A stretch of DNA of 64,000 nucleotides from Candidatus Latescibacterota bacterium (GCA_965116875.1 OZ220733.1:4512001-4576000), one strand, 5' to 3'. Positions 6,314 to 33,495 are shown, counted from the first letter of the stretch. Program-made: numbers and translations. The notes: generated by a model not told the origin, from the sequence alone.

Positions 6314-9300
6314 TCAATTGAAGCGGATTTCTCCCCATACCTTGAATTCCCAGACCCTGTTGTTCAGGTCCCGGAGCTTGTCCTTCCGGTTTTCATGTCG
6401 AAGGCGGGTCCCTCCCGTAAACTTGCTGCTGAACTGATACTGACCTGCAAGGCTGGAGTGCCAGCGATCTTCGCTCTGGCGCACCACAGCCTGTTCAGTT
6501 TCGGTGGCGTCCGCGCTTCGGGGAATCTCCCGTTTGAGGCTTGTGTTGGTGCCGTACTCCAGGGTGAGGTCCAGGTTGCTTTGCAGTTTCCGGACGAACT
6601 TCGAGCTGAGTGAATATCTGAGGGATGCCGTGAACTGGGACGTTTCTGTAATGGTGGTTCCAATCTGGCGCTCCTCCAGCGTCGGCTGCGCCAGGGTCGT
6701 GTCGGCCGCCACGTTACGCTGGTACCTGATGTCGCTCTGACGACTGCGGTTTCTGCGGAGATTCGTACTCATTCTGTTCTTCCACCGGGCCTGCCACGCG
6801 ACGAGAGGCCTGAACTCCGTTCTCCGGGTATCGTTGGTCAGGACGTGGTCATCCAGCCCCCCGTCGCCCCTGAAGGTGCGGTTTGTCTTGTAGTTGAAGC
6901 TGAGATTGGAACTGGTGAACAACCATCTCAGAACCGGAAGTTCACCAAGGCCGCGCCAGTTTATGCCAAATTCCGGGAATTCCAGTTTCTGTTCCTCCGT
7001 ATTGGCGTTACCAAAACTCCTCGTATGATTGAACGTCAGATTGGTACTGCCCCGAAAGCCGGCCGGAAGGCGAACGCCGCCCTTGACAATCGCATTATCG
7101 GTGATGTTTCTGGTGTTCACACGTGTGACGCCCCCCGAACCGTAACGGGGCGACGTCGTGGTGTCGGTGATCCCGAGCTGGAACTTCAATGCGGGTCGAC
7201 GTCTCAGGCCGAAGAGATTGAACGTACGGTTGCGAAAGACGTTGACCTGAACGAGTTCCAATGATCCGCCCAGTCTCCCAATTAGCCGGACCACGGAAAA
7301 CCCGGTCCGGTCCTTCGACGGACGTGCGAGAGGACGAAATAGTCCGGGCACGTTCAGGCTGAACCTGCCGCCGACGCGGCTGGTGTTACCCACGGACAGA
7401 CCTCGGCGTTCGTTGCCTATGGGAGTACGCTGGCCTCCGGTTTCAAGTCGCTCACGATAGCGGGCGGAGTAGTCGGAATTGATGTTGAGCCACTTGGAGA
7501 CCCGGGGCGTGAAGTTGAAGCGCACCTCCTGATTTCGCGTGGTCTCGCGGCCAAACTGCAGTCTGGCGAAATCGAACGAATTCCTGAGGTCGCGGTTTAC
7601 CCCGAGGGAATAGTTGGCGTTCAGGCTCCGAAAGGGAGTCAGTTTTATAGCGAAACTCTCATTGACGTTGAAAGTCTCATTCAAGACCGCGATGACATCG
7701 GACGTATCGCCTTCGACGGCGGAGAAGGAGCGTCTGTTGATGTTCTTCCGGTCAAAACGCAGGTTATAACGAATTGTTGACGGGAGGTAGAAGAACCGGA
7801 CTTCCTCGAAAGTGGAACCCAGCCCCGGGATCCAGGTAAGGATTGTAACGCCTCTTTGTCTGGGCCAGCTGACGTCATAGCTGAAACTCCCGTTGAAATT
7901 ATGCTGTTTGTTGGACCGGCGACGCGTGATTGCGCCGCTGACCGCGTTGTTGGAAAGGAGGTTCAGTGACGCATTGATCCGGTCGAAGAAAAGCCTGGCG
8001 ATCCAGCGACGGTCTGTAGCCGCCGCACGTTTGCGCAGAGAGACATTGAACCGTGAGGAAGCGCGGACCGCGCTCTCCCGACTCTTCTGCTGTTCGGTCA
8101 GTACGATGTCTGAACCCTGTCGGATTCGGGGCACCGAGCCGTTCCGGAGGTAATTGAACCGGACCGGAATGACGGTGTTCCATCTGTCGGGCAGGAACTT
8201 GTTCAGATTGAACGAACCGTTCATGCTGACCTGGGTTGTCGTATTGCCCGTGGAACGTCCCTGAAGATCCTGGAAGTCGCCGCTCCTTCGTTCCAGATTC
8301 AGGCTCACGTTTCCCAGATCCGCCAGTGTGGTCTGAACGTTCAATAACATGGAGACGGCGTTTTTCTTGCGGATTCGATCGACGCGGAGTTCATCCAGCC
8401 AGATTTCGTTCTCTCCCTCCAGGGGGAATTCTCCCGTGTTTCTGACGCCGACCACGAAAGACTTGATTTTCGAAAGCGCCGGGTTGCCGCGCACGGTATA
8501 CGTTCCGCCGTGCAGTCGTGCGCGTATCTGACTGGCTTCACTGTCGTAGTCGGCCAGGATCTCTCCAGTAGGGAGGGAAATCCTCAGGGTGTCGGACGCC
8601 TGCCCGATGGCCTTGAAGTCCGTGAGCTTCGCCTTGATCTGCGACAGGACATCAAGCTCGATCTTGAACGTGTTGTTTTCCGGAGACCAGCCCCGGTAGA
8701 TGGGCTTCCTGAACTCATAGAAGTTGAGCGTGTCTTCGCCGATAGGTGAAAACCTTACAAAGAGTTCGATCGGGCTGAAGCTGCCGGCGACCGAATCGGG
8801 TCCGGCGGGAAAATTCGCCTCGTACGCGGGTGACGTGGGATTCCCGCCGTGTACGAACATGGTCATCAGACCGTATCGGGTATAATTCTGACCCTCGGTA
8901 AAGGTCCTCGACGCCGACATGCTCTCACCGGGAAACAGGTCTTCAAACCGGAGAACGAGAGACCGTTCGAGGAGTTGCCTTCCCGTCTGTGGATCGATCT
9001 CACGTTCGAGTCCGGGCGGAAGTTCATAGACCTGATTGTCGGTGCCGATGGTGGCAACCTTGAAGTCACCCGACTGTTGTCCCTCAGGGGATTCATCTTC
9101 GAGCCAGTCGCTTCCTACCGCGGCGATCGTGTAGATGTCGAGGGAGGTTGTATCGTCGTGTTCGATCCAGATTCGCGCGAAATCAAACACGCCGGCGAAG
9201 GTGGTATCCGGATTGCCTTCGACCGTGCGGGGCGCGTTGCCGCCGCGCAGGGGAATGCGCAACAGCCTCCAGGGCCTGTCGGAGGGATCGGACTGGCTGC

Positions 9301-12300
9301 CCACGACGAGCACGGAAGGGCCGTCGTACTCGCCGGTCAGCGGGTTCCAGCCCCGATCCGACGCCAGATCGACGCCGTAGTGCAGGTAGTGGTTTCGCGT
9401 GTCCAGGATGCCGTTTCGGTTGAGGTCTTCGGAGTCGGGTCTTTGTTCACGCTCGGGATTGTTGTTCTGGGTACCATTAATCCCCGCCGGGTACCGGAAA
9501 CGAAGATCCTCCTGCGCGTCGTCCACGTCCTTGAAGTTGTCGTCCGACGGATCGTCGGGTACTGTCACGCCGGGGTAGATCAGGCGAAAGACCGAATCTT
9601 CCTGGGCATCGGTCAGACCGTCAAGGCCGATGTCCTCTTCCGGAACGGCCACGTCATCGCCAGTGGGAAAACCGGGAAGGGGACGGTCTTCGGTGCGAAA
9701 CTGCCCGGCAGGCGGCGGGTTGAACGTCGCGTGGTCGAGCAGCAGACCCGCCCGCTCGGAGATCTCACCCAGATCGATATGCAGCCGGCCGGAATTCCCC
9801 CTGACCCAGAGCTCGATAAACTTGGACCGTGAGAAGTCCATGCCGAACAGGTAACTCGTAATGCCCGCCCAGGAGGTTTCCGGGAGGCCCCCGGCCGGGT
9901 TCCGCGAGGTCTCGGGAAAGCCGTTGGTGCGGTGCGGCTCGAATCGGACGCTGAGAACGTCGTCGATGATACTGCTTTCCACGGGAATGTCGTCGCGGCT
10001 CGGCTGAATCTCGTAGATGGTTATGCGGTCCCGGTCCACCAGATTGTACCAGGTGAGGCGTCCCTTCGGCAGTGAGAGGGGGAGTCCGTTCCGGGTTGGG
10101 AAGCTTCCCGCGGACCAGTCGAATTTAAACGTCGAAAACGACTTCCTGCTTTCGGCGCCCTCGAAATCATCGATGTACGCTACGTTCTTCGTATTCGGGT
10201 TGGGAAGGCTCTGGGCAATTTCCATGTCGACGTTAAGTGCCGATGGCGCCTCGGTGGAGACGAACGGCAGCCTGTTGGCGAAGTCGGTGAGGATCTGCGG
10301 CTTGAAGCGGAATCTGCCGTTCATATCCCAGATCAGGGTTCGCGCGGGCTCGTCGCCCACGCGGATCCGTTGCGTTCTGGCACTTTCGCTGCCGTAGAGA
10401 AGGCTGACCCCCACCATCGAGACGTTGTCTTTGAATGGGTGCTCCGCCCGGATGCCAAGAAGACTCTTCTGCCCGCCGCCCAGACCGAACTGGCTCTTGG
10501 AACGGTAGTTGATTGTCAGGTTGGCGGATGGGTCGGCCGCGAGATCCGCGGCCTCGCCGATCAGATTAATGTCACCGCTTACATATTGGATGTCGTAGTC
10601 CCGGCCGCGGGTCAGCCGCTGGGTGTTCAACAGCACCTCCTCGCTGTTTTCGATCACACCAAATCCCAGATTGAATTTGGTGGCCCTGCTCTGCGATCGG
10701 ATCCGCAGGAAATATTGTCCCTTCTGGGCGCGGGTGGTGTTGTTGGTCGTGTTGTAGATCTCGGGCACGCGGGCGTCGTCCGCCAGCGTCTCCGCGCCGA
10801 CACCGCGTTCACCGAACGGCTCGAGGTCCGGAAATACGAGGTGGCCGGTCAGCAGATTGAGTCCGGGCAGATTCGTGCCACCGTCGATGTCGATGAGATT
10901 GTCGGGAGGAGAGGATTCCGAAGCGCCGTTTGTATGTCTGTCCAGTCCGAAGATCTGAAGGTAGGGGGTGCCGCCCTGGTTGTCCACCGCCTCCTGGCCG
11001 GGGACGTCTCTGAGGATCTCCAGTTCGAAACCCTCAGGTTCGATGTTCCGGTCTCCGAGGAAATACACGTTTCGCCACGCCAGGTCCCACGTTGGAAATT
11101 CCGGCCTTTGCTGGCGGGCGTGTATGAGTTTCAGTCTGATCTTCGTTTCCGGATCTGAGGGATTCTGGATGAAATTGAGGTCCCCGAAGACCCGGCCGTC
11201 GGCCGTGCGGTACGCAACGGCAAGGGTGTGACTTCGCTGGACTCTCCTGACGGTCATGATCAGATACCCTCTGGCGTCAACCAGAAATTCGGAGCGGTCC
11301 AGTTCGTGAAAAAACCCCTCTTCGATGCCTCCGCTTTGCGCGCCATCCGCACCGGCATCCGGCTCCGGAGCCGCTCCGCCCGTCCAGTATGCGTAAGCGG
11401 ATCCACGGCCTGCGCGCTGTTCAATATCATTGCGATCGTTGAAGTCATTAAGAAAGACCCGGACGGAGTTGATGTCCACGAGGTCCGGTCGAGCGGGTTC
11501 GTCGGGGAAACTCCTTCGATATACCTGGTCGAGAAAGAAGTACCGGTTTTCTTCGTAATCGTAGTCGCTGATTCTGTGTGCGATCTCCTCAGCCTGACCC
11601 TGGAAGGATTTCCGGTTGCTGGCGCCACGGTCGTGGCTCGTGACCACCGTTACGTCCAATCCGCCCAGTCGCCCACGGCCTTTGATGCCGAACAAACCGC
11701 TTGGGTTGGACGAACTGAAGCCGACCAGTCGGGTACCCGGCAGGCTGAGGGAGGTACGGCCCGCCTCAATCTCCTGGATGATATCGTCTTCGTCTCCATC
11801 GTAGCGAAATTGAAGGGACTCGCTGATATCCGTCTGACCGCGACTGTCCTGCTGCAGATTCAGTGAAATGCGGTCGCCGATCGTACCCTGCACGTTTAAC
11901 TGGGATTCCTGCTCGAAGTTTACGGTAAAGCCCTCGGCTGCGCGCGCGCGGACGGTCTGTGCCTGCCCGCCCACGGTGGTATTCCTCCCTGACAGATCGA
12001 TACGCCGCGATCCGGTGATTTTGATATTGGTGTCGCCTTCACCGGTAATGACACTCAATGCCTTGGGCACATTGACCGGTATCTTGATATCCACGAGCGC
12101 TCCGCCCATATCCCGGCGGGTCCGCACGGGAAGACTGAGTTTTTCCGCAACCACGCGACGGAAGTCAGCGTCGAATTTGTATGCGGACAGACCCTTTATG
12201 GTGATGACCGCGGGAATGCCATGGACGACTTCGCCTGCAGCGCGATACACCATGAGTGTACCCGTATCCGTGTTGAGCAGTCGGGTGACCGTCTGGGTGA

Positions 12301-12577
12301 ACTGCCGCCGCTGTCGAAAGAGTGGCTGAAAGGCGGTGGAACGGGAATACGTCAGCTTGACCGGAGAACGATGAAAGACGTGCGCGGGGGTTTTTCCGAA
12401 AGAGAGTTGGATGCCCGGTTCGGCGTGGAGCCTGGCCGAATCGGACAAAAGACTCGTGCTGAGCGCAAAAGCGAGGATCGCGGGAAGCGGAAGCGTCGTT
12501 CCCCGTTGTGATTCTCTGGAGATGTATGGGATCTGCATGCGTGAATTGGCGTGGCTTGTTCGAGGACGGCCCTGCAC
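6314..12577 (-). CDS. sprA: SprA/Sov-like giant outer-membrane protein (T9SS translocon family); start uncertain
   Basis: 2087 aa. DDIIQEIEAG, GLFGIKG, YIDDFEGAE and IWLDELRV match SprA motifs. Ends in a beta-strand with terminal F (IRFN). Confidence 0.85.
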   Translation of the reverse strand: MQGRPRTSHANSRMQIPYISRESQRGTTLPLPAILAFALSTSLLSDSARLHAEPGIQLSFGKTPAHVFHRSPVKLTYSRSTAFQPLFRQRRQFTQTVTRLLNTDTGTLMVYRAAGEVVHGIPAVITIKGLSAYKFDADFRRVVAEKLSLPVRTRRDMGGALVDIKIPVNVPKALSVITGEGDTNIKITGSRRIDLSGRNTTVGGQAQTVRARAAEGFTVNFEQESQLNVQGTIGDRISLNLQQDSRGQTDISESLQFRYDGDEDDIIQEIEAGRTSLSLPGTRLVGFSSSNPSGLFGIKGRGRLGGLDVTVVTSHDRGASNRKSFQGQAEEIAHRISDYDYEENRYFFLDQVYRRSFPDEPARPDLVDINSVRVFLNDFNDRNDIEQRAGRGSAYAYWTGGAAPEPDAGADGAQSGGIEEGFFHELDRSEFLVDARGYLIMTVRRVQRSHTLAVAYRTADGRVFGDLNFIQNPSDPETKIRLKLIHARQQRPEFPTWDLAWRNVYFLGDRNIEPEGFELEILRDVPGQEAVDNQGGTPYLQIFGLDRHTNGASESSPPDNLIDIDGGTNLPGLNLLTGHLVFPDLEPFGERGVGAETLADDARVPEIYNTTNNTTRAQKGQYFLRIRSQSRATKFNLGFGVIENSEEVLLNTQRLTRGRDYDIQYVSGDINLIGEAADLAADPSANLTINYRSKSQFGLGGGQKSLLGIRAEHPFKDNVSMVGVSLLYGSESARTQRIRVGDEPARTLIWDMNGRFRFKPQILTDFANRLPFVSTEAPSALNVDMEIAQSLPNPNTKNVAYIDDFEGAESRKSFSTFKFDWSAGSFPTRNGLPLSLPKGRLTWYNLVDRDRITIYEIQPSRDDIPVESSIIDDVLSVRFEPHRTNGFPETSRNPAGGLPETSWAGITSYLFGMDFSRSKFIELWVRGNSGRLHIDLGEISERAGLLLDHATFNPPPAGQFRTEDRPLPGFPTGDDVAVPEEDIGLDGLTDAQEDSVFRLIYPGVTVPDDPSDDNFKDVDDAQEDLRFRYPAGINGTQNNNPEREQRPDSEDLNRNGILDTRNHYLHYGVDLASDRGWNPLTGEYDGPSVLVVGSQSDPSDRPWRLLRIPLRGGNAPRTVEGNPDTTFAGVFDFARIWIEHDDTTSLDIYTIAAVGSDWLEDESPEGQQSGDFKVATIGTDNQVYELPPGLEREIDPQTGRQLLERSLVLRFEDLFPGESMSASRTFTEGQNYTRYGLMTMFVHGGNPTSPAYEANFPAGPDSVAGSFSPIELFVRFSPIGEDTLNFYEFRKPIYRGWSPENNTFKIELDVLSQIKAKLTDFKAIGQASDTLRISLPTGEILADYDSEASQIRARLHGGTYTVRGNPALSKIKSFVVGVRNTGEFPLEGENEIWLDELRVDRIRKKNAVSMLLNVQTTLADLGNVSLNLERRSGDFQDLQGRSTGNTTTQVSMNGSFNLNKFLPDRWNTVIPVRFNYLRNGSVPRIRQGSDIVLTEQQKSRESAVRASSRFNVSLRKRAAATDRRWIARLFFDRINASLNLLSNNAVSGAITRRRSNKQHNFNGSFSYDVSWPRQRGVTILTWIPGLGSTFEEVRFFYLPSTIRYNLRFDRKNINRRSFSAVEGDTSDVIAVLNETFNVNESFAIKLTPFRSLNANYSLGVNRDLRNSFDFARLQFGRETTRNQEVRFNFTPRVSKWLNINSDYSARYRERLETGGQRTPIGNERRGLSVGNTSRVGGRFSLNVPGLFRPLARPSKDRTGFSVVRLIGRLGGSLELVQVNVFRNRTFNLFGLRRRPALKFQLGITDTTTSPRYGSGGVTRVNTRNITDNAIVKGGVRLPAGFRGSTNLTFNHTRSFGNANTEEQKLEFPEFGINWRGLGELPVLRWLFTSSNLSFNYKTNRTFRGDGGLDDHVLTNDTRRTEFRPLVAWQARWKNRMSTNLRRNRSRQSDIRYQRNVAADTTLAQPTLEERQIGTTITETSQFTASLRYSLSSKFVRKLQSNLDLTLEYGTNTSLKREIPRSADATETEQAVVRQSEDRWHSSLAGQYQFSSKFTGGTRLRHENRKDKLRDLNNRVWEFKVWGEIRFN

Positions 12578-18950: not shown

Positions 18951-20027
18951 TCAATCTATTCTGATACGCTGCAGATCGTAGGAATCGATATTGTAGGGTT
19001 CAAAGGTATCGTCATCTCCGGGCGTGTAGACCGCCAGGTACAAATACTCATCGTTGTTGTCGATGGCGATGCCTCGTTCCCTGAGGTTTCCGGCCGCAAG
19101 AAAGTAGCGCTTCTCCAGTTTGGTCTGCGTATCGAACTCAACGATAAAAACGCCCGCTTCATCAGCGTCTGTAGGCGCGACAAATAACCGGCGGCCGTCG
19201 CGGCTCAGCGCGAGCCCCAGTGCGGGCGACTTGATTTCATATTTCCCGGACAGGGTCAGGTCGTCGGTACTGAATGCCCAGAGGTCCTTAACGTGGCCGC
19301 GGTCTTCCGGATCCGCCAGACCCAGATAGAGATGCTCGTTGAGGGGGCCAATGACGAAATCGTTGATCTTGGCTGAGAAACTGAACCGGGTTGAGGTGGT
19401 CTCCGTGGTGGGGAATCGTCCTGAAGCGTCGTATTTCAGCACATTGTTTCTGGCGGCGACAAACAGCTTTTGGTCCCCGTGGCTCATCTGAAGCGCGCCG
19501 GAACGCACGTTCCCGCTTGACTCGAGGTTGTCCACAATCGAAACTGCGATCAGCAACGGTTCATCCAGAGAGGAAACATAGACCGTCGAGTCGGTTCCGC
19601 AGACGATGTGGGAAATGTCATTCAGCGTAAAGGGAACCGTCTTCACAATGGCGAATGAACTCAGGTCGATTACCTTGAGGTTCGATTCGCCGTTCAAACC
19701 CACCACCAGACGGCGTTGATCCGGCGTGATGTCAATGTCGACGGGGTGGGAACCAACCTGAATGCTCCCGTCGACGGACATCCGGCTGCCGAGGTGGATA
19801 CGGAGTATCCGGTTGTTTCCGTAATCGGCCAGATACAGATATGGCTGATTCGGATCCATGACCATATCGGAGATGTTCACGCCGAGTTCGAGTATTTCGA
19901 AATCTTCGATCTCGTAGAACTGCTCAGGCTCCTCGTCGTCAAGATAGAGCGAGCAGCCCGCCACAAAAAGGGTTACGCACAGGGCAAGAAAAACGAACCG
20001 GCCGCTTTTCTTTCCAATTCGGTGCAT
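18951..20027 (-). CDS. Lipoprotein, YncE/YVTN-like beta-propeller
   Basis: Signal peptide with lipobox VAGC; VGSHPVDIDITPD and LALSRDGRRLFV repeats. Confidence 0.75.
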   Translation of the reverse strand: MHRIGKKSGRFVFLALCVTLFVAGCSLYLDDEEPEQFYEIEDFEILELGVNISDMVMDPNQPYLYLADYGNNRILRIHLGSRMSVDGSIQVGSHPVDIDITPDQRRLVVGLNGESNLKVIDLSSFAIVKTVPFTLNDISHIVCGTDSTVYVSSLDEPLLIAVSIVDNLESSGNVRSGALQMSHGDQKLFVAARNNVLKYDASGRFPTTETTSTRFSFSAKINDFVIGPLNEHLYLGLADPEDRGHVKDLWAFSTDDLTLSGKYEIKSPALGLALSRDGRRLFVAPTDADEAGVFIVEFDTQTKLEKRYFLAAGNLRERGIAIDNNDEYLYLAVYTPGDDDTFEPYNIDSYDLQRIRID

Positions 20028-20154: not shown

Positions 20155-21120
20155 CTAAAGCGAGATAGCATATGACGTGCTCAGCTCGACCAGATAGTCC
20201 GATGTGAGCTGGCTCTCGTTCACGTTTTGAAAGACGACAAAGGGCATGTGAAATTCAACGCTTAAATTGTCCAGTACGTTGAACCCCAATTCGGGCGAAA
20301 GATACATCCACTTTCCTCCGCGTTCTCTGGTTATCTGTCCGTACTGATATCGGTCCCTCGAGGTGATCAGGTTTTTGAGGCTCACCCCGCCGTACAGCCA
20401 GCCTCCACCCTCGTATTCCAGAGAGAGGCTTGCGTGCAGTTCGTTTCCGTATTTGTAGCCATAGATGTTCTGCCTTGAGGTGATGCGTGTGAACACACCT
20501 GCTGAAACCGTGAGATTTTCGAAACGATGGAAACCATGGATCGCCAGAATCGGATCCACACTTCCCGACCCGATCTGCAGGTTGTCGGAGAAACGCTCGC
20601 CGTACCGGTCCTTGGCATCCACGGAACCGTTTGCCAGCTTCAAACCGATGCCGAAATTCATCCCGGGAAAGCCCGCCGCGAGGGGAGCGGCGTAATTAAG
20701 CATAGCCACGATATCGCCGAGGCCGGAAGCATTCCGGACGTACTTGCCACCCTCATATTGATTGGGATTCTGACCCCGCAACAGCACCTTTTCGTTGGTT
20801 ACGGAACGAAAGGGTACGGCGAGGGCAAGACCGATGTGCCCGGAAACGCCCAGCGAGGCAAACAGGGTGGTTGTGGCATTGTCCGTTCGCTCGCGATTGA
20901 CGTTCGGAATGGCGCGCGACCCGTAGTGGGGGTCTGACAGGAATTCGTAGTCGTAATGCACGCTGAGCTTCAACTGATCCTGCACGGCGAGACTGTTCTT
21001 CATGAGGCTCCCGCCCGGGAGCACGGGGCGTCGTCAGCTGACGCCGCCCTGAGCGTGGGCGGCCGGCGCAGCGACAAATCGCGCCAGAAGAAACAGGAAG
21101 AGTACTGCGGACGTTCGCAT
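20155..21120 (-). CDS. Outer-membrane beta-barrel (MetA-pathway/phenol-degradation 'transporter'-like) with in-frame UGA at codon 29; candidate selenoprotein
   Basis: RBS AAGGA, then ATG 21120 and signal peptide MRTSAVLFLFLLARFVAAPAAHA-QGGVS. TGA at 21034-21036 is in frame with ORF 20155..21024 (GLGD, LKLANG, LQIGSGSVD, YKYGNEL). Confidence 0.75.
21007..21022 (-). promoter_or_regulatory. Putative bacterial SECIS hairpin
   Basis: GCUCCC-GGGC-GGGAGC, a perfect 6-bp stem with a G-rich loop, beginning 11 nt 3' of the UGA. Confidence 0.6.
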
Positions 21121-21361
21121 TCCGGGTTTCCTTGATTCGTTCGTTGTGGACTTGCCGGGAGCGTCCCGGATCCCGGGTTGAAATATACCTTACCTGCCTC
21201 CGGATAGCAAGGCGGATTTTCTTTTCCGAGTCTGCATAGAGCTCAAATTTACAGATCTTTACATAGCTATTCGTCGCGCCGTTTTTGCTTGACACCAAAG
21301 GGAGATTGGGCTATCTTTATCCACCGATTTCCAGCAGACGGCTTCGTACGCGGGGCTTGTG

Positions 21362-23341: not shown

Positions 23342-23941
23342 TTGATAAAACTGTTGCTGGCTTTTTTCGGAATGGGTGTCGTGGCGGTGGGCGCGCACGC
23401 CGACCGGGAACACGTGATGGACACGAGCGAAGAGAATATGAAACGGATTGCCGCGTCACTCGGGGTACGGTGTGCTCATTGTCACACTGCACGCACACCG
23501 GATGGAAAGCCTGACTTTATGGCGCCTTCGTTGTTCAAGCAGACAGCCGTCCACATGAAAGTTCATTTTGTGGACGGCCTGAAAACACAGGACGGGAAGG
23601 CGCTGGACTGCATGTCTTGCCACCGGGGAAGGGCCCGATTTATACCGCGGGATCTCGCCGGCGCCAAACCCTCCAATCTGTCTGAGCGGATGCCGCGGCG
23701 GGAGATTTATCGGAAGATGAAGGCTATTGAGTCAGCATTGGGGGTAAACTGTGAATTTTGTCACGTCAGGCGTGAGGATGGACGCCTCGCGCCGGAGCAG
23801 CCCACCCGACACAAGCTGATGGCGAAATATATGATGGACCACTACGAGGGATCGCTCGTCACATCGGACGGGTCGCCGGTCACGTGCGGAACCTGCCACG
23901 CCGGCGCGGCAGAATTTCTGCCGCGTTCCGCGGGTGAATAA
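23342..23941 (+). CDS. Secreted tetraheme c-type cytochrome (reaction-centre cytochrome c subunit-like)
   Basis: Signal peptide; CAHCH, CMSCH, CEFCH, CGTCH; duplicated M..I..(S/A)LGV.C..CH unit. Confidence 0.85.
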   Translation: MIKLLLAFFGMGVVAVGAHADREHVMDTSEENMKRIAASLGVRCAHCHTARTPDGKPDFMAPSLFKQTAVHMKVHFVDGLKTQDGKALDCMSCHRGRARFIPRDLAGAKPSNLSERMPRREIYRKMKAIESALGVNCEFCHVRREDGRLAPEQPTRHKLMAKYMMDHYEGSLVTSDGSPVTCGTCHAGAAEFLPRSAGE

Positions 23942-24021: not shown

Positions 24022-27000
24022 CTATGAACAGCCAACCGAATTTCCGCAATTCAGGCAGCGATAGCACGAACCGTTACGTACTGTAATATGACCACACGTG
24101 TCGCAAAATGGAGCATCCCCCATCATCTGCGAGAGCTGACCGTCCAGAACCACCGTATGAGGATGCGCGTGCGCTTCCGTTTGAGATGACGAGCCGTTCG
24201 ATGCGGTTTCCTGTGATTCCGCACTCGCCGTGCCGTTGGATGCCGGATTGGCTTTTGGCGCGGGGTCTGCCGGCGGTGAAGCGCCTGGCGAATCGGCACG
24301 AGTGCCCGGGACTTCGGAACTTTGTGCAGAGAGCGAAATCATCTCGTTTTCCAGATCGTGATGATCGTTGATATCGGATGCGATATCTTCGGGCTTAACC
24401 TGCAGAAAGTCGGTCCGGCCGAGATATTCGTAGCCCAGGACGCGGAAGATGTAATCGACAACGGAGGTCGCGAATTTGATATTGGGATGATCGACGGTTC
24501 CCCAGGGATCGAATCGGGTAAAGGTGAAGCGGTCCACGAACTCTTCGAGCGGTACGCCGTGTTGAAGGCCCTTGGAGACGGCAATAGCGAAACAGTCCAG
24601 CATGGCGCGGAAAGGCGCCCCTTCCTTGCTCATGTCAATGAAGATTTCCCCAAGCGTGCCGTCCTCGTATTCACCGGTGCGAAGGAAGACCTTCTGATTG
24701 GCGACACGCGCTTCCTGCGTGAATCCGCTTCGTTTTTTCGGGAGCCGGCGTCTTGTCGGTCGGCTCGCCAGCGTGACCGGCGCAGGCGCTGACGTAACGT
24801 GGCCGACTTCCGCCGATTGCTCGGGCGATTCTTCTGCTTCGGCGGTCTCCGCTTCGGCGTCGGATTTTGTAGCCGTACTCAGGGGCTGAGAGAGTTTAGA
24901 GCCATCTCGATAGATGGCCACGGCCTTCAACCCCAGTTCCCAGCCCTTGATATAAAGGCCTTCAATTTCCCCGGCTGTGGTTTCATTGGGGACGTTTACG
25001 GTTTTGGAAATGGCGCCGCAGATAAACTTCTGCGCGGCGGACATCATACCCAGGTGAGCCATGGGCGCAATAAAGCGCCTGCCATGTTTCCCGCACTTGT
25101 TCGCACAGTCGAATATGGGCAGATGTTCATCTTTGAGATGAGGCGCTCCCTCGACGGTCATACGGCCGCAAATGTATTCGTTGGCTTCGTCGATTTGAGA
25201 TCCGGTAAAGCCGAGTTCGGAAAGCAGGTTGAATCCGGGCGCTCCGTATTGTTCGGCAGAGAAGCCCAGGCGTCCCATCAGACCGTCTCCCAGAATCCAG
25301 GGCGTAAAGGCGAATTCCAGCTCGAGGACGCCGGGAAGCGCGCCCTCCGCCTTTGCCAGATCCGCGGGACTGAAACCCTTGGCCTTCAACGACTCGACGT
25401 TGATATGCGGTGCGCCTTTCAGGGAGAGCCGTCCGCTGAGGTAGGTGAGGATATCGGTAATCTCGTCGGAAGAATAGCCAAGCCTTTCGAGGGCTTTCGG
25501 CACGGCGTGGTTGACGATTTTGAAATAGCCGCCGCCGGCGAGTTTTTTGAACTTGACCAGGGCGAAGTCCGGTTCAATGCCGGTTGTGTCGCAGTCCATC
25601 AGCAAGCCGATGGTGCCCGTGGGCGCGATTACTGTGGCCTGCGCATTACGATAGCCGTACTTTTCGCCCAGTTCGACCGCCTGGTCCCAGTCTTCCTGCG
25701 CGGCGCGAAGCAGGTCGCGCGGGCAGGCGCGGGCATCGATACTGTGAGCAGCGTCTCTGTGCATGTTCATAACGTTGAGCATGGGGCCGCGGTTCTTGTC
25801 GAAGCCGGGAAATGGACCCTTGTCGGCTGCCATTCGGGCGGAGGTCGCGTATGCCTGACCACACATGACTGCGGTGATGGCGGCGCAGATCGCCCGTGCT
25901 CCCTCGCTGTCGTAGGGCAGCCCCTGAACCATCAGGAGTGTACCCAGGTTGGCGTAACCGAGGCCGAGGGGGCGATAATCGTGGCTGTTCCGCGCGATCT
26001 TCCGCGTGGGATAGGATGCGAAATCGACCAGAATTTCCTGGGCAATGAAAAAGATCTTGCACGCATAACGGAAACCGTCGACGTCGAAGGCGCCATCTTC
26101 ATTGAGGAACTTCATGAGGTTGATAGAGGCCAGGTTGCACGCCGTGTCGTCGAGGAACATGAACTCCGAACACGGGTTGGACCCGTAGATACGGTCGGTG
26201 CCGGCGCACGTGTGCCAGTGGTTGATGGTGGTGTCGTATTGCATTCCGGGATCGGCACAGGCCCAGGCGGCCTCCGCGATTTGCCGCATAAGATCGCGGG
26301 CCTTGTGCGTTTCGTGGACTTCCCCGGTTGTGCGCAATCGGGTGTGCCACTCGCCGTCCTCTTTACAGGCCTGCATAAATGCGTCCGTGACACGAACGGA
26401 GTTGTTGGAGTTCTGGCCGGAAACGGTCTGGTACGCCTCGCCGTTGAAGTCCGAACTGTAGCCGGCGGCCATGAGTGCGGCGACCTTCTTCTCTTCCTTT
26501 ACTTTCCAATTGATGAAGTCGAGTATTTCCGGGTGATCCATGTCCAGGCAGACCATTTTGGCGGCGCGTCTTGTCGTCCCGCCGGATTTGATGGCGCCGG
26601 CGCCCCGGTCGAGGACTTCCAGAAAGGACATCAGGCCGGATGAGACGCCGCCTCCGGAGAGCTTCTCCATTCTTCCACGAATCCTGGAGAAGTTGGTACC
26701 GGTGCCCGACCCGTATTTGAAGAGTCGGACTTCACTCTTCAGCAATTCGAAAATGTCCATGGTGTCGTCCTGGACGGACTGAATATAGCATGCGGAGCAC
26801 TGCGGATGCGAATAGGAGTCTTCGGTTTCCGATACGCATTCCCTGTCCCAGTGCCAGTTGCCGCCGCTTCCGCGAATGCCGTATTCGTGGTACAGCCCGC
26901 AGTTGAACCAGACCGGCGAGTTGAAAGCGCCCATTTGATGTACGAGGTGGAAGGCAAGTTCCGCCTCGAAGGTGTCCGCGTCTTCAGGCGAGTCGAAATA

Positions 27001-27282
27001 TCCGCCCTGGTCCTCCCCGGCCATGCGGATGGTGCGGGCAACCCGCTGCATCACCTGTCGCACGGAAGTTTCGTGTCCGGTATCGGGCACACCCCGTTTT
27101 CGGAAGTATTTCGATACAACGATATCCGTTGCCAGTTGGGACCACTCGGCCGGGACTTCGGCGTGGTCCATGCGAAAGACTTCTGATCCGTCGGGGTTGG
27201 TGATTACGGAAGTTTTCTCTACGTATTCGACCTGATCCAACGGATTCCGGCCGGGAGTCGTCTGCCTGCGTTCAAGCTTCAT
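24022..27282 (-). CDS. nrdJ: Vitamin B12-dependent (class II) ribonucleotide reductase
   Basis: FNSPVWFN, PQCSAC, GGTTRRAAKM, NPCSE, IAPTGTI, AISKTVN, C-terminal TSCPD-like domain and CDTCG..CLNCG. ATG at 27282 follows GGAGG. Confidence 0.96.
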   Translation of the reverse strand: MKLERRQTTPGRNPLDQVEYVEKTSVITNPDGSEVFRMDHAEVPAEWSQLATDIVVSKYFRKRGVPDTGHETSVRQVMQRVARTIRMAGEDQGGYFDSPEDADTFEAELAFHLVHQMGAFNSPVWFNCGLYHEYGIRGSGGNWHWDRECVSETEDSYSHPQCSACYIQSVQDDTMDIFELLKSEVRLFKYGSGTGTNFSRIRGRMEKLSGGGVSSGLMSFLEVLDRGAGAIKSGGTTRRAAKMVCLDMDHPEILDFINWKVKEEKKVAALMAAGYSSDFNGEAYQTVSGQNSNNSVRVTDAFMQACKEDGEWHTRLRTTGEVHETHKARDLMRQIAEAAWACADPGMQYDTTINHWHTCAGTDRIYGSNPCSEFMFLDDTACNLASINLMKFLNEDGAFDVDGFRYACKIFFIAQEILVDFASYPTRKIARNSHDYRPLGLGYANLGTLLMVQGLPYDSEGARAICAAITAVMCGQAYATSARMAADKGPFPGFDKNRGPMLNVMNMHRDAAHSIDARACPRDLLRAAQEDWDQAVELGEKYGYRNAQATVIAPTGTIGLLMDCDTTGIEPDFALVKFKKLAGGGYFKIVNHAVPKALERLGYSSDEITDILTYLSGRLSLKGAPHINVESLKAKGFSPADLAKAEGALPGVLELEFAFTPWILGDGLMGRLGFSAEQYGAPGFNLLSELGFTGSQIDEANEYICGRMTVEGAPHLKDEHLPIFDCANKCGKHGRRFIAPMAHLGMMSAAQKFICGAISKTVNVPNETTAGEIEGLYIKGWELGLKAVAIYRDGSKLSQPLSTATKSDAEAETAEAEESPEQSAEVGHVTSAPAPVTLASRPTRRRLPKKRSGFTQEARVANQKVFLRTGEYEDGTLGEIFIDMSKEGAPFRAMLDCFAIAVSKGLQHGVPLEEFVDRFTFTRFDPWGTVDHPNIKFATSVVDYIFRVLGYEYLGRTDFLQVKPEDIASDINDHHDLENEMISLSAQSSEVPGTRADSPGASPPADPAPKANPASNGTASAESQETASNGSSSQTEAHAHPHTVVLDGQLSQMMGDAPFCDTCGHITVRNGSCYRCLNCGNSVGCS

Positions 27283-27654
27283 ATGAGGGCTTCCTCCGGA
27301 AATCTGGAATCGATTTGAAATTGAAACGGCAAGGCAAAGAGGAACAGCCTGGTAAACTTGATTCGTGCCGCAAAAATCCTGCGCCGCCTGTTCGGGCGGG
27401 ACCAAAGTCAGTCCAATTGCAGATCTTGAAGTTGTTTCAGAATTCCCGGTGAGCTCCCCGGCGCGAGCGAAAAGGTGGCGGTCATGGCGGGAGAATCCGC
27501 CTCTATCAATTGATCAGGGCGGGTTTGACCAGGGCCGACCGGCGATTTTATAGCCGCGCGAAGACCCACAGGGGATTTTAAAACAGCTTCCTGAGACGCA
27601 ACTGAAGGGGAAAGGCGCGTCCGGTGACTACAGCGAGAAGGGAGTGAATCCGGT

Positions 27655-28119
27655 TCAGCCGCCTGCTTGAGGGGAAGCGAGTTGCCGAAGTTCCTTTTCA
27701 AAGTCACTCAGGTCTTTGAACTGCCTGTAGACCGATGCGAAACGGACATAGGCGACCTGGTCGAGGTCTTTCAGTTCATTAATTACCAGTTCGCCGATAT
27801 CGTTGGCCTCAACTTCACGTTCGCCGGTGCCGCTCAGCCTGGCTTCGATACGGTCCGCGATTTCTTCGAGCCGGTCCATTGAAATGGGTCGTTTGTTACA
27901 CGCGAGATGAAGCTTTGAAAAGAGCTTGTTTTTGTCGAACGGTTCGCGTCGACCATCGGACTTGACGACCATCAGCGGCGTGTCTTCGATGGATTCGTAG
28001 GTCGTAAACCTCCGACCGCAATTCAGACATTCCCGGCGTCTGCGAATGGCCGTTGACTCTTTGCTGGACCTGGAGTCTACGACCTTGTCCTCCACTGTTC
28101 CACAGTAGGGACATCTCAT
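27655..28119 (-). CDS. nrdR: Transcriptional repressor NrdR
   Basis: MRCPYC..VVDSR..IRRRREC..C..RFTTYE, ATP cone, AYVRFASVY. Confidence 0.98.
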   Translation of the reverse strand: MRCPYCGTVEDKVVDSRSSKESTAIRRRRECLNCGRRFTTYESIEDTPLMVVKSDGRREPFDKNKLFSKLHLACNKRPISMDRLEEIADRIEARLSGTGEREVEANDIGELVINELKDLDQVAYVRFASVYRQFKDLSDFEKELRQLASPQAGG

Positions 28120-28538: not shown

Positions 28539-30941
28539 TCAGGGCGAAGTCACGTCCAGGTTCCGATCCCGGAAAGTCAGCCGTGTGCCGGACACGGTCG
28601 AGTGCGAGAGGTAGGTGCCGTCGGAGTCGGTCCTGATTACAGCGCAGATTGCATCGGTGGCAAGTCCGCCTGCCCCGAACGTCCTGTGTGTTCCGTCCGT
28701 AATGACGATGTGATCCACGCCGCCGGCGCGTTCCACGATCAGGTACGCGGTGCCGCCCGGTCCGTGGTTTTCGCCGCGACGAACCCGCACACCGGGAAGC
28801 GGCATGCTCCGGAAGGGGTAGAGCAGCACGGCGAGGTCGTCCACGAGGCCGTCGCCGGAAGTCGTCACGTCAAGGGAAGCCCACCGGATGAGTTGTCGTG
28901 CGGGCCTCCGGCCCGGGATGCCCCCGAGATGCGCCATTCCCGTGCCCAGGCGAACGGACGGCGCATCGGGCGTGGCCACGAGCAAACCCGGCGCTTCCGT
29001 GGAAAACACCGCCGTTCCGCCTCGCTGAAGCGGCGTGGGAGAATGAAGGTAGAACGAAGCTCTTCTTCCGCCTTCGGCCGAGGAGAAGGCATCGAATACC
29101 AGAAAGTAGGGATCGGTCCCGGTTGCCGGCTCAGCGGGCTTCAGGAAGAGAACGTGGCGACGATGGATGACGCCCCGTGATCGATAGCCTTCGTGCTCCG
29201 CTGAAAAGTAGTCCATTCCGGCCTGACTGCTCCAGACGGGTTGCTCGCCCACTGCGATCCGACGATCCAGGTTCCGGTCGTCTATCACGAGCATGTTGTG
29301 CGCTTTGGAGCTTGTGTACCAGGACCGGTGTAGCGGATCGTCGTAGCTGACGCCGAGCCCGGCGTCGACGGCCAGTGCCGCGCCGTAAGCAAACAGTTCA
29401 AAACTGAGAATGTCGTAGTGGTAATGCCCGCCGGCCCAGTCGCCGTAATTGATAACCAGATATGGGCTTTCCCGCGTCCAGTTCAGTCGCATCACGGCGA
29501 AACCGGACGGACGGAAATCGATTGACGTGCCGGAAGGCGGTTCGGCATCGTCGTCAATGTCGGCCCCCAGCAGGTTTCTGGCCACCCACAACAGGTCCGG
29601 CCGATCGAAGATGCGCCCGCCATCGACAAAGACGTCCCTGTCGAACCGCGCCCGGCCGCCGTCGTTGACCGCGGGCTGGGTGCCCAGGGGGCTGATCAGG
29701 TACATCCAGTGATTCAGGGTCCGTTCGAGGGGTGGGCGCAGGGCCGCCGCCCGGTCTTCATGACCGCCGAACTTCCCCAGAAGGTGGGCGAGATTCCTCG
29801 GATCGCGATAAACGACATTGGAGTAGCTCGACGGGCAACGCTCGGAATGGCAGCCGTCTTCGTAGAAGTCCTTTGCCAGATGTTCTTCAATCCTGTTGAC
29901 GCCAAGTGAGACCCAGCGCCCGGCTTCCCTGAACTCGGCGAAGTTGAGGCCCAGTTCGGCCAGGGCGTAGGAGCCCATCACCTGCCAGTTGCCCGAACGG
30001 TACCCCTGCTTCTGCAATTCGAACAACCAGCGTGCCGATCCCAGGAAGTTCTTCAGGATCCGTTCGTGGGTCGTTACGGCGAGCCTTCCGCGGTTCAGAC
30101 GATAAAACTCCAGAAAAACGCGGTTCCGGCGGGCGCCGAGTCCAAGTTCATACCAGATCGGGTGTTTGTCCGGGTCGGCGCCCACGACGTCGTCACGCTG
30201 TACGTACCACTGGTTGAAGAGTTCGTCGAAGGCGTCCAGATACTTCGTGTCCCTCGTGCCCAGGTATGCCCAGAGCAGGGGCTGGGACCATTCCCAATAG
30301 TGGAATCCGTATTTTCCGCCGCGACCGTAATCCGCATTGAAGTCCACGACCGGCCCGTGCTGGATGTTGACGCCACCCCATCCGGTAATATTGTGGGCGG
30401 CCACGCGGTCAGCCACCGCGGTATACGATTTCGTACTGAAGTACCGAAAGGCAGCTTCCACGGTGTAATAGGGGACGCCGGCGTTAATATAGGCGTATCC
30501 CGGTCGTGTGTCCCAGTACCTGCCCCACGCCCTGTAAGCCTCGGTGTAATCTCTCCGGTCAACGGCGCGCTTCACGTCCTCCAGCCCGGCACGGTTCAGA
30601 TCCATCGCCGCAAAGAGATCCGGATCGCTGATGTGCTTGATCTGCCTGTCGAGGTAGACGGGATCTTCACGGAGGTCGGTATTCGACTCGCCGAACGCCG
30701 TCGCAAACAGAACGAAGTCACTGAAACCGACCCGCCCGTCGGCATCCAGATCGAAAAGGTCGTCGAAGGCGTCATCGGACCGGGACGTACCGAAGTTCCG
30801 GACGAAGGCGACGAAATCTTCGAAGCCCACGTGGCCGTCGCCGGTGAAGTCCGCGGACACATTCGAATTGGCGCCGGCATGCATCAGCAGGGCCGCCGCG
30901 AGCGGGCTCAGCCACATCCAATGCGCGATTTTTCCGGTCAT
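28539..30941 (-). CDS. Heparinase II/III-family polysaccharide lyase with N-terminal dockerin/EF-hand pair (copy 1)
   Basis: Signal peptide, DFTGDGHVGFEDF / DLDADGRVGFSDF, NW, DG.H.E, SGFAVMR, H.H.D.LSF, VDAG, AHN. Confidence 0.85.
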   Translation of the reverse strand: MTGKIAHWMWLSPLAAALLMHAGANSNVSADFTGDGHVGFEDFVAFVRNFGTSRSDDAFDDLFDLDADGRVGFSDFVLFATAFGESNTDLREDPVYLDRQIKHISDPDLFAAMDLNRAGLEDVKRAVDRRDYTEAYRAWGRYWDTRPGYAYINAGVPYYTVEAAFRYFSTKSYTAVADRVAAHNITGWGGVNIQHGPVVDFNADYGRGGKYGFHYWEWSQPLLWAYLGTRDTKYLDAFDELFNQWYVQRDDVVGADPDKHPIWYELGLGARRNRVFLEFYRLNRGRLAVTTHERILKNFLGSARWLFELQKQGYRSGNWQVMGSYALAELGLNFAEFREAGRWVSLGVNRIEEHLAKDFYEDGCHSERCPSSYSNVVYRDPRNLAHLLGKFGGHEDRAAALRPPLERTLNHWMYLISPLGTQPAVNDGGRARFDRDVFVDGGRIFDRPDLLWVARNLLGADIDDDAEPPSGTSIDFRPSGFAVMRLNWTRESPYLVINYGDWAGGHYHYDILSFELFAYGAALAVDAGLGVSYDDPLHRSWYTSSKAHNMLVIDDRNLDRRIAVGEQPVWSSQAGMDYFSAEHEGYRSRGVIHRRHVLFLKPAEPATGTDPYFLVFDAFSSAEGGRRASFYLHSPTPLQRGGTAVFSTEAPGLLVATPDAPSVRLGTGMAHLGGIPGRRPARQLIRWASLDVTTSGDGLVDDLAVLLYPFRSMPLPGVRVRRGENHGPGGTAYLIVERAGGVDHIVITDGTHRTFGAGGLATDAICAVIRTDSDGTYLSHSTVSGTRLTFRDRNLDVTSP

Positions 30942-31092
30942 CGGAATTTCCGAAAGTCGTTGCGATGGAGAATCCGGGCCGTCTGAGCGGATCGTTGGAA
31001 GTTTCGGCTCTACGTCGATCGAATGGCAACCGCTCGAGGCAATGCCCGTCGTCGTCACGTTTTCCCGGTATCGGAAACGGTCAGGGTTCGCC

Positions 31093-33495
31093 TCAAGGCG
31101 ACGTCACGTCCAGGTTTTGATCCCGGAAAGTCAGCCGTGTGCCGGACACGGTCGAGTGCGTGAGGTAGGCGCCGTCGGAGTCGGTCCTGATTACAGCGCA
31201 GATTGCATCGGTGGTAAGTCCGCCTGCCCCGAACGTCCTGTGTGTTCCGTCCGTAATGACGATGTGATCCACGCCGCCGGCGTGTTCCACGATCAGGTAC
31301 GCGGTGCCGCCCGGTCCGTGGTTTTCACCGCGACGAACCCGCACACCGGGAAGCGGCATGCTCCGGAAGGGGTAGAGCAGCACGGCGAGGTCATCCACGA
31401 GGCCGTCGCCGGAAGTCGTCACGTCAAGGGAAGCCCACCGGATGAGTTGTCGTGCGGGCCTCCGGCCCGGGATGCCCCCGAGATGCGCCATTCCCGTGCC
31501 CAGGCGAACGGACGGCGCATCGGGCGTGGCCACGAGCAAACCCGGCGCTTCCGTGGAAAACACCGCCGTTCCGCCTCGCTGAAGCGGCGTGGGAGAATGA
31601 AGGTAAAACGAAGCTCTTCTTCCGCCTTCCGCCGAGGAGAAGGCATCGAATACCAGAAAGTAGGGATCGGTCCCGGTTGCCGGCTCAGCGGGCTTCAGGA
31701 AGAGAACGTGGCGACGATGGATGACGCCGCGTGATCGATAACCTTCGTGCTCCGCTGAAAAGTAGTCCATTCCGGCCTGGCTGCTCCATATCGGATTCAG
31801 GCCAACGGCAATCCTGCGGTCCAGGTTCGCATCGTCAATCACCAGCATATTGTGCGCCCTGGACGTCTTGTACCACGGTCCGTGGAGCGGGTCGTCGTAA
31901 CTGACGCCGATGCCGGCGTCCACGGCCAGCGCATCGCCATAGGCGAAAAGCTCGAAACTGAGGACGTCGGGGTGCGAATGCCCTCCGCCGTACTCGCCGT
32001 AGTTGATGACCAGATAGGGACTCGCGCGGGTCCAGTCCTGGCGCATCACTGCGAAACCGGACGGTCGGAAATCAATAGACGTTCCGGATGGTGGCTCGAC
32101 CGGGTCTTCGATATCGGCGCCGAGCAGGTTTTCAGCCACCCATAGCATATCCGGTCGATTGAAGGCGCGTCCGCCATCGATGAAGATATCGCGGTTGAAA
32201 CGGCCGCGTCCTCCGTCGTTAACCGCAGGTTGGGTGCCCAGCGGACTGATCAGGTACATCCAGTGGTTCAACGTCCGTTCGAGGGGCGGGCGAAGGCTTG
32301 CCGCGCGCTGCCGGTTGTCGCCGAAGCGCTCGAGCAGGTAGGCAAGATTCCTGGGATCGCGATAGACGATCGTCGAATAGCTGGACGGGCAGCGCTCCGA
32401 ATGACAGCCGTCTTCGTAGAAATCTCTCTGAAGATGTTCTTCGATCCGGTAGACGCCCTGTGAGACCCACCGTTCCGCCTCCCTGAACTCGGGCAGGTTG
32501 ATGCCCAGTTCGGCCAGGGCGTAGGAACCCATCACCTGCCAGTTGCCCGACCGGTACCCCTGTTTTTCCAATTCGTAGAGCCAGCGCGCTGAACCCAGGA
32601 AGTTCTTCAGGATCCGCTCGTGAGTCCGCACCGAAAGCCGTCCCCGGTTCAGCTTGTAGAATTCCAGGAATACGCGGTTCCTGCGCGAACCGAGGCCGAG
32701 TTCGTACCAGATCGGATCCAGGTGGGCGTAAGCACCCTCGACGTCGTCCCGCTGCTCGTACCATTGATTGAAGAGCCTGTCGAAAACATCGAGATACTTT
32801 GTGTCACGCGTGCCGAGGTACGCCCACAACAGGGGTCCCGACCAACCCCAGTAGTGGAATCCGTATTTGCCGCTTCTTCCGTAATCCGCGTTGAAATCCA
32901 CGACCGGACCGTGCTGAATGGTGACGCCGCCCCATCCGGTGATGTTGTGAGCGGCCACGCGATCCGCGGCCGCCGTGTAATTTCTGGTACTGAAGTACTC
33001 GAATGCCTGGTCGACGCTGTGGTAGGGAATGCCGACATTGATATAGTCGAACCCCGTCCGGGCGTCCCAGTATGCGCCCCACGCTTCGTAGGCCGCGCCG
33101 TACTCCCCCTGGTCCACCGCGCGCTTCACGTCCGCCAGCCCGGCACGGTTCAGATCCATCGCGGCAAAGAGATCGGGATCGCTGATGTGCTTGATCTGCC
33201 CGTCCAGGTAGACGGGATCCTCACGGAGGTCGGTACGCGCCTCACCGAAAGCCGCCGCAAACAGAACGAAGTCACTGAAACCGACGCGCCCGTCGGCATC
33301 CAGATCGAATCGGTCGTCGAAGGCGTCATCGGACCTGGACGTGCCAAAGTTCCGGACGAAGACGACGAAATCATCGAACGCGACCACACCGTCCCCCGTA
33401 AAGTCCCCCGCAACGCCGCACCAGGCGGCTGAGAACGCCAGAATGACGATCAGGGACGGTCCGGAGCATTTTCGTAGTAGAGTTTGAGGGGACAT
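31093..33495 (-). CDS. Heparinase II/III-family polysaccharide lyase with N-terminal dockerin/EF-hand pair (copy 2)
   Basis: Tandem paralog of 28539..30941 with the same motifs. Confidence 0.85.
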   Translation of the reverse strand: MSPQTLLRKCSGPSLIVILAFSAAWCGVAGDFTGDGVVAFDDFVVFVRNFGTSRSDDAFDDRFDLDADGRVGFSDFVLFAAAFGEARTDLREDPVYLDGQIKHISDPDLFAAMDLNRAGLADVKRAVDQGEYGAAYEAWGAYWDARTGFDYINVGIPYHSVDQAFEYFSTRNYTAAADRVAAHNITGWGGVTIQHGPVVDFNADYGRSGKYGFHYWGWSGPLLWAYLGTRDTKYLDVFDRLFNQWYEQRDDVEGAYAHLDPIWYELGLGSRRNRVFLEFYKLNRGRLSVRTHERILKNFLGSARWLYELEKQGYRSGNWQVMGSYALAELGINLPEFREAERWVSQGVYRIEEHLQRDFYEDGCHSERCPSSYSTIVYRDPRNLAYLLERFGDNRQRAASLRPPLERTLNHWMYLISPLGTQPAVNDGGRGRFNRDIFIDGGRAFNRPDMLWVAENLLGADIEDPVEPPSGTSIDFRPSGFAVMRQDWTRASPYLVINYGEYGGGHSHPDVLSFELFAYGDALAVDAGIGVSYDDPLHGPWYKTSRAHNMLVIDDANLDRRIAVGLNPIWSSQAGMDYFSAEHEGYRSRGVIHRRHVLFLKPAEPATGTDPYFLVFDAFSSAEGGRRASFYLHSPTPLQRGGTAVFSTEAPGLLVATPDAPSVRLGTGMAHLGGIPGRRPARQLIRWASLDVTTSGDGLVDDLAVLLYPFRSMPLPGVRVRRGENHGPGGTAYLIVEHAGGVDHIVITDGTHRTFGAGGLTTDAICAVIRTDSDGAYLTHSTVSGTRLTFRDQNLDVTSP

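Follow-up and report, generated by a model that had tools for sequence, protein, structure and literature searches.

The minimal selenocysteine insertion sequence (SECIS) element of Escherichia coli fdhF starts 11 nt downstream of the UGA codon. Among outer-membrane channels, FapF and the COG4313 member 4rl8 are 12-stranded barrels with an N-terminal plug, and in COG4313 channels the N-terminal segment lies inside the barrel. Outer-membrane barrels with selenocysteine (Sec) form a rare class: as far as its accessible parts go, a 2026 review lists 119 selenoprotein families with no PF13557-like barrel among them, and its only outer-membrane barrels are the GSU2204/MtrB-PioB family (NF041027) and an FCYXU-type TonB-dependent receptor (NF049945), both with predicted Sec (PMC13188914). 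Here we describe a gene on the minus strand of a 64,000-nt stretch of DNA from Candidatus Latescibacterota bacterium (GCA_965116875.1 OZ220733.1:4512001-4576000; hereafter the window), which codes for a predicted β-barrel protein behind a signal peptide and is interrupted by a single in-frame TGA, and which very probably belongs to a real, apparently undescribed family of predicted selenoproteins.

The full coding sequence occupies positions 20155..21120 of the minus strand, to which all coordinates of this gene refer. A Shine-Dalgarno-like AAGGAA (21128..21133), found by direct reading of the sequence, lies 7 nt ahead of the start codon ATG (21120-21118), and translation from there yields a 23-residue signal peptide, MRTSAVLFLFLLARFVAAPAAHA (21052..21120), directly followed by QGGVS, which would become the mature N-terminus upon cleavage after AHA. 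The TGA at 21034..21036, the proposed selenocysteine codon, is codon 29 and thereby residue 6 of the mature protein; past it, RRPVLPGG follows, and the translated frame, RRPVLPGGSLMKNSL..., meets no further stop until the TAG at 20157-20155. With TGA read as U, the product comprises 321 residues with U at position 29. A mechanical list of open reading frames (ORFs) contains the truncated version seen by gene callers, 20155..21024, which has 289 aa, begins with a GTG 32 codons downstream of the ATG at 21120 and lacks a signal peptide; the latter, judged by eye and not with a predictor, is part of the product only if the TGA is read through. An earlier note on this DNA had drawn the same picture, with a truncated ORF devoid of a signal peptide, a ribosome-binding site, an ATG and an AHA-ending signal peptide 32 codons upstream in the same frame, a single TGA six residues into the mature protein (QGGVS-UGA-RRPVLPGG) and a product of 321 aa, and we could reproduce it in all of these points. 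In the GC-rich group, the TGA furthermore sits within a perfect 10-nt palindrome, GTCAGCTGAC (codons GTC AGC TGA C; window 21025-21045, minus strand). A longer stem around the UGA built on this palindrome is not supported family-wide by RNAalifold.

To collect relatives, a word-indexed protein search, which returned 72 database proteins, was combined with one scan of species genomes, which returned 67 related loci (L001-L067). Conservation of the TGA in homologues, which the earlier note had named among the features to look for, is extensive: the codon is present at the identical column, after the N-terminal leader and ahead of RRPxLPGG, in 61 of the 67 loci, namely in all of L001-L060 except L058, whose match spans only residues 123-321, and in the distant L066 and L067. 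In each of the 61 loci the TGA precedes [R/T/S]-x-P-x-L-P, and the frames are intact on either side of it. Nearly all of them have a hydrophobic in-frame leader upstream, and 55 of the 61 leaders open with ATG; four are unclear (L014 and L067, with long GC-rich ORFs; L059, with only 12 residues; L033-35, with a TTG start). According to their database records, the TGA loci derive from Latescibacterota, "Gemmatimonadota" metagenome-assembled genomes (MAGs), KSB1, Calditrichaceae, Fidelibacterota/Neomarinimicrobiota/Marinimicrobia, an 'FCB group' MAG and two Myxococcota, spanning GC-rich to AT-rich genomes and several phyla.

Thirteen genomes, as assigned by contig and isolate names, carry two paralogues each, QGGVS-U...GGSL and QPGVS-U...GGRM, and the TGA is found in both. 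The second paralogue, QPGVS-U-RRPVLPGGRM, is represented by L017, L018, L020-L023, L025-L027, L029-L031 and L049; the 13 genomes concerned also carry the window-type gene, and the genome of the window probably has a copy of the second paralogue too, outside the window. The Myxococcota pair reads C-P-G-U and C-A-G-U, with a Cys three residues ahead of the TGA; these forms lie at L066:1168-2127 and near position 5992 of L067, and are followed by a similar hairpin. On a Latescibacteria contig (L024:3733-4593), the barrel frame stops early at a TGA after 262 mature residues, which a frameshift or a misassembly close to the end of the contig may explain.

As a specificity control, we collected from the window and the 67 loci all TGA codons flanked by 20 open codons on either side, 5498 in total, and grouped them by conservation of both flanks. 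The barrel TGA forms a single component of 54 loci with a lowest nucleotide identity of 0.39, from which an extra three-locus group of the same TGA is split off. All other components of at least six loci have a lowest identity of at least 0.62 and unite close relatives only; they look like off-frame readings of conserved genes. As the barrel TGA is the only one of the 5498 scanned codons that is kept across divergent loci, its conservation is far beyond chance. The same scan yielded no other conserved in-frame TGA, and hence no candidate for a further selenoprotein gene, in the window and the flanks.

Elsewhere, TGA acts as an ordinary stop codon. The 46 non-overlapping ORFs of the window, two of which run off its ends, terminate 23 times with TGA, 11 times with TAG and 10 times with TAA (TGA in 23 of 44 complete ORFs), and among the 61 barrel genes, 21 themselves end in TGA. 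These counts exclude a global reassignment of TGA (codes 4 or 25), and decoding of the barrel TGA must therefore be local. Annotation is affected systematically: the 10 closest database proteins, with 81-95% identity, are each 282 aa long and start at an internal Met (21003-21001 here), the signature of a gene that was cut by the callers at a stop codon, just as the earlier note had expected gene callers to miss the full gene. One of the ten is named 'transporter [Gemmatimonadota bacterium]'. A few full-length database entries have W or S at the column. Seven proteins carry W, and five of these are 92-99% identical to loci that have a TGA codon, for which reason we regard Trp at this column as an artefact, best explained, to judge from these sequence identities, by the use of a genetic code with TGA as Trp in gene calling; the argument is weaker for P0061 and P0076, whose nearest loci are 80% and 72% identical.

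Downstream of the TGA, the earlier note had described a hairpin, GCUCCC-GGGC-GGGAGC, at a distance of exactly 11 nt. We find it at 21007..21022, with a perfect 6-bp stem and a 4-nt loop (21016-21013), encoded by the codons for (V)LPGGS. Over this region, 62 sequences align without gaps, and RNAalifold predicts the same helix with 5 bp. Across the alignment, 93.2% of the cells of the 6-bp helix are paired, compared with 27-69% after a shift of the partner by 1-3 columns, and the observed covariation score is reached in none of 500 shuffles. As the stem lies in the codons of a conserved peptide, LPGGS, only wobble positions are informative in this respect. The pair 48-57 joins two such synonymous positions, the third base of the Leu codon (CUN) and the third base of the second Gly codon (GGN), and it occurs in five pair types (CG 36, UA 19, UG 3, GC 2, AU 1), being unpaired in none of the 61 distinct rows. 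On a protein tree that was built without the hairpin codons, the state of this pair switched 15 times or more. Across 10 phylogenetically independent pairs, a change at the 5' base was matched by one at the 3' base 8.2 times on average and never countered by one in the opposite sense, the 3' base staying as it was in the remaining 1.8 (median sign-test p 0.008). The hairpin, whose conservation in homologues the earlier note had proposed as a check, is thus maintained by compensatory changes.

The accessible part of the published description of bacterial SECIS (bSECIS) elements specifies a loop of 3-9 nt, an upper stem of 4-16 bp, a G within the first two nucleotides of the loop, a distance of 16-37 nt between UGA and loop, and a minimum free energy (MFE) of at most -7.5 kcal/mol (PMC13188914). 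The element described here lies inside these limits with its stem of 5-6 bp, its UGA-to-loop distance of 17 nt and its 4-nt loop, which conforms to N-G-[G/U]-N in 62 of 62 sequences; the MFE over the 45 nt downstream is -7.5 kcal/mol or lower in 56 of 62.

To place the Sec column in a wider family, we ran profile A3, made from 36 mature sequences, on a set of 1.84 billion representative proteins. Of 3363 hits with E <= 0.001, only 19 had E <= 1e-30, from which we conclude that the close family is small and mostly stored in truncated form. In an alignment based on a hidden Markov model, 26 database proteins reach the Sec column, with 13 C, 7 W, 4 S, 1 P and 1 T. The earlier note had raised the question of whether homologues show Cys or a conserved TGA here, and both occur: the 13 with Cys are all distant relatives, while close ones have the TGA or, in two cases, Ser. 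A signal-like N-terminus was present in 93 of 147 newly listed hits, and 52 of these have CC, 13 CxC, 15 another Cys and 13 none; many distant full-length hits begin with Q-x-C-C-S-x-G-x-P right after the signal peptide. Since the column aligns with Cys in distant relatives, the position of Sec would be that of a Cys in an N-terminal thiol motif of ancestral origin. By sequence comparison, the wider family appears to have a vicinal Cys-Cys pair just past the signal peptide, which became Ser-Sec in the present subfamily and C-x-G-U in the two Myxococcota. The close family itself is almost always in the Sec form. A large uncharacterised barrel family with the N-terminus Q-x-C-C-S-x-G-x-P is found among P0093-P0220, and other branches have SCGxxxCP-type motifs; of nine distant relatives that we scanned, seven match no Pfam family, P0188 and P0077 match PF13557 weakly, and none matches an NCBIfam family.

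The barrel domain spans mature residues ~26-297 (20161..20976), as delimited by an AlphaFold2 model, Foldseek and Pfam. The model, built on A3, has a mean predicted local distance difference test score (pLDDT) of 83.1, with ~89 in the barrel, and a predicted template modelling score of 0.81. In Pfam, PF13557 (Phenol_MetA_deg) matches with 22.0 bits against a cut-off of 22 (E 1.9e-4), and 11 of the 72 database relatives carry a precomputed PF13557 label. The best Foldseek match is FapF (5o65; E 3.7e-13, template modelling (TM) score 0.67), and the COG4313 channel of Pseudomonas putida (4rl8_C) is matched with E 3.1e-11 and TM scores of 0.70 and 0.77 on query and target, respectively; as modelled, the fold is that of this solved COG4313 channel member. 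Structural look-alikes in the ESM Atlas fall only into 'hypothetical' and PF13557-type clusters.

Based on the results above, we consider it highly likely that the gene is expressed by SelB-dependent insertion of Sec at codon 29, export and cleavage after AHA, giving a FapF/COG4313-like barrel with a tail of ~25 residues that carries Sec at position 6. This agrees with the proposal of the earlier note, an exported β-barrel with an N-terminal selenocysteine, which is now supported by the conserved TGA, the covariation in the hairpin and the Cys of distant relatives. Translation would start at the ATG at 21120; at the UGA of codon 29, the hairpin 11 nt downstream would act as a bacterial SECIS element, bound by SelB, which would deliver Sec-tRNASec. 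Synthesis would then continue in frame, the signal peptide would be removed and the barrel inserted in the outer membrane, with Sec in the N-terminal tail ahead of the first strand. With low confidence, we suggest that this tail may latch or plug the channel, being redox-active or binding a soft ligand (the earlier note had considered a metal- or redox-gated plug), and working together with an adjacent β-propeller lipoprotein, while a TlpA-like periplasmic thioredoxin encoded upstream in part of the genomes could keep it reduced; the idea comes from the thiol motif of relatives, the C-x-x-U of the Myxococcota and the neighbouring TlpA-like reductase. A bolder version, possible but rather unlikely, is that a mobile Sec tail, having replaced the ancestral Cys-Cys, threads or plugs the channel and, by way of its selenium, relays a chalcogen or a soft metal at the cell envelope, to be re-reduced by the TlpA-like reductase, with the lipoprotein taking over the cargo. 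As the UGA is at codon 29, the channel would in that case be made only in the presence of selenium, and the family might be one of the main reasons why abundant lineages without cultures, namely SAR406/Marinimicrobia, KSB1 and Latescibacterota, 'orphan SelD' genomes included, keep a selenium metabolism.

Several observations weigh against Sec insertion into an N-terminal tail, or at least limit the case for it. Within the hairpin, four of the six pairs cannot separate RNA from protein constraint, coded as they are by the conserved LPGGS, and the pair 45-60 is weaker than the pair 48-57, with 38 rows paired and 23 of 61 unpaired. Only 48 of 62 sequences have a minimal 19-nt hairpin of -7.5 kcal/mol or lower, and just 31 of 62 adopt the canonical register in their single-sequence MFE fold, because G+C-rich alternatives compete with it. 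On the protein side, Cys at the column is restricted to relatives of ~20-30% identity, for which the short N-terminal alignment may shift by one residue, so that the column meets either Cys of the pair; in P0016 and P0018, two close homologues of full length, it is occupied by Ser instead of Cys, so that a version without Sec or Cys can exist. In the structural model, residues 1-20 have a pLDDT of 44-51, and Sec is not placed in the fold. No tRNA-Sec was detected in the 64-kb window or in 60 scanned loci, and none of the SelA, SelB and SelD families in 45 window ORFs, the rest of the genomes not having been searched in either case; an absence from the window and its flanks says little. In the searchable literature, we found no statement on the use of Sec in Latescibacterota.

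Among the alternatives, a selenium-free programmed read-through of the UGA survives best, yet we regard it as improbable. Here, Trp, Cys, Arg or Gly would be inserted by a suppressor tRNA or a near-cognate one, stimulated by the hairpin, giving the full barrel and no selenoprotein. A hairpin shortly past a stop codon does resemble read-through signals, the searched window and flanks (the remainder of the genomes was not covered) contain no Sec machinery, and the Ser of two homologues suggests that the chemistry of the residue may be dispensable. However, the hairpin fits the SelB-type model in its spacing and, throughout all 62 sequences, in its loop; the column is occupied by Cys in distant relatives, and the Myxococcota have a Cys three residues before the TGA, which is the usual Sec signature; and the UGA has been retained across several phyla, although a single base change yields a sense codon. 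In addition, in the sections of the respective papers that are accessible, selA, selB and selD are reported for KSB1 MAGs except those of clade II (PMC9012183), and 'orphan SelD' is the category given to three single-cell genomes of SAR406 and two of KSB1 (PMC5029168).

A second alternative, which we think very improbable, holds that the 28 codons up to the TGA form a signal-like regulatory upstream ORF, with the hairpin as an attenuator and the barrel starting anew downstream. In the Latescibacterota group, an ATG is indeed found 10-11 codons past the TGA (33 of 62 rows), and it is the start used by gene callers. But within 20 codons past the TGA, 28 of the 62 sequences have no in-frame ATG and 22 have neither ATG nor GTG nor TTG, and RRPxLPGG, which lies between the TGA and any such start, is kept as in-frame protein in all 61 loci; moreover, a barrel made by restart could not reach the outer membrane, because it would have no signal peptide. 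Lastly, a nonsense mutation, a pseudogene or a sequencing error in the window genome, as one might suspect from one TGA interrupting an otherwise intact gene, is refuted by the same TGA in 61 independent assemblies with frames intact on both sides, and in both paralogues of 13 genomes.

The barrel gene has one frequent companion. On the same strand, 128 nt past its stop codon, the window encodes a β-propeller lipoprotein with the lipobox ...VAG|C (18951..20027, minus strand); such a gene is the next one after the barrel gene in 46 of 68 sources, frequently with overlapping stop and start codons, its product showing weak matches to Pfam Lactonase/SGL and having the lipobox Cys in 46 of 46 cases. 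A TlpA-like thioredoxin with WATWCxxC is encoded directly upstream in 14 loci, and FG-GAP/ASPIC proteins with a type-IX sorting domain lie beside the barrel gene in 28. The QPGVS-U paralogues have an S-adenosylmethionine-dependent methyltransferase downstream and an NHL propeller upstream, and in L066 the barrel gene is directly followed by a gene for a 272-aa lipoprotein without a Pfam family. Genes for glycan use are near the Marinimicrobia loci and unrelated genes near those of Myxococcota; beyond the lipoprotein and the thioredoxin, no consistent functional neighbours were found across the loci. There were also no fap genes among the annotated neighbours and no sign of an amyloid substrate. 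Upstream of the barrel gene, on the opposite strand, the window and the 14 closest loci share genes for tRNA-Arg and tRNA-His. A small multihaem cytochrome c with CxxCH repeats and Cytochrome_C7 and MtrC-like matches (23342-23938), two genes upstream of the barrel gene, is likewise kept in the 14 closest loci.

Further away in the window, we noted a 2087-aa SprA-like protein of the type IX secretion translocon family (6317-12577), a 1127-aa ribonucleotide reductase of the B12-dependent class II that includes a TSCPD domain (24025-28119) and NrdR just upstream, and two tandem heparinase II/III-like genes for 839 and 800 aa (28542-33495). The region 34004-50865 looks like a defence island: it contains the type I restriction-modification genes hsdR (34004-36982), hsdS (47158-48399) and hsdM (49024-50865), interrupted by genes for a DDE_3 transposase (42760-43668) and a 1071-aa AAA ATPase (43926-47138) and by large ORFs without a family (37474-38646, 39764-42445). 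Small DUF3368 and UPF0175 genes resembling a toxin-antitoxin pair (56507-57657) and an IS1595-family transposase (60634-61548) are located towards the end.

With respect to novelty, the earlier note had placed the protein outside the classic selenoprotein families, and it is missing from the review's 119, so far as that list is accessible, as well as from NCBIfam: release 20, which includes NF041027 and NF049945, has no match to P0001 down to E = 1 except a chance one of 12.7 bits to TIGR04200. A literature search for selenocysteine in connection with COG4313, PF13557 or 'MetA-pathway' found nothing relevant, subscription papers and closed supplements being outside its reach, and no statement on the selenoproteins of Marinimicrobia was found in the searchable literature, PMC8318568 and PMC9999580 included. 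What we see at this locus are standard bacterial Sec-decoding signals in an unusual setting and with a wide taxonomic spread. The predicted family would add to a rare class, for which the review, in its accessible part, lists only two other members, and recognising it corrects a systematic annotation error, as public entries appear either as headless 282-aa 'transporters' or with the codon read as Trp. A further implication is that Latescibacterota and the marine Marinimicrobia, which are abundant worldwide, decode selenocysteine. The result also draws attention to a larger family of uncharacterised outer-membrane barrels that have Cys-Cys as their N-terminal motif and whose chemistry now becomes approachable. 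The near-constant Sec form is unusual, and makes this family a good case for learning what selenium does beyond sulphur.

Like bacterial SECIS elements, represented by the bSECISearch consensus and E. coli fdhF, the hairpin is placed in the coding region just past the UGA, with a similar stem, loop and spacing, but relative to the fdhF element it is shorter, and no bulged U is seen. Concerning the protein, NF041027 and NF049945 are likewise exported outer-membrane barrels with predicted Sec, yet their folds and families differ from the one described here. Conversely, the channels of COG4313/PF13557 (4rl8) have the same fold, but share only ~10% sequence identity, and none of them is known to contain Sec; FapF (5o65, 5o67), the best structural match, has an identity of 11-13%. 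The subfamily is set apart from COG4313 by conserved motifs of its own, NVNESQL, NIYGYKYGNE and LQ.GSGS.DP, together with the N-terminal S-U that is C-C elsewhere. The Q-x-C-C-S-x-G-x-P relatives (e.g. P0094, P0121, P0153) have the same barrel profile (E 1e-20 to 1e-29), a signal peptide and the thiol motif in the same place, but carry Cys-Cys where the barrels described here carry Ser-Sec.

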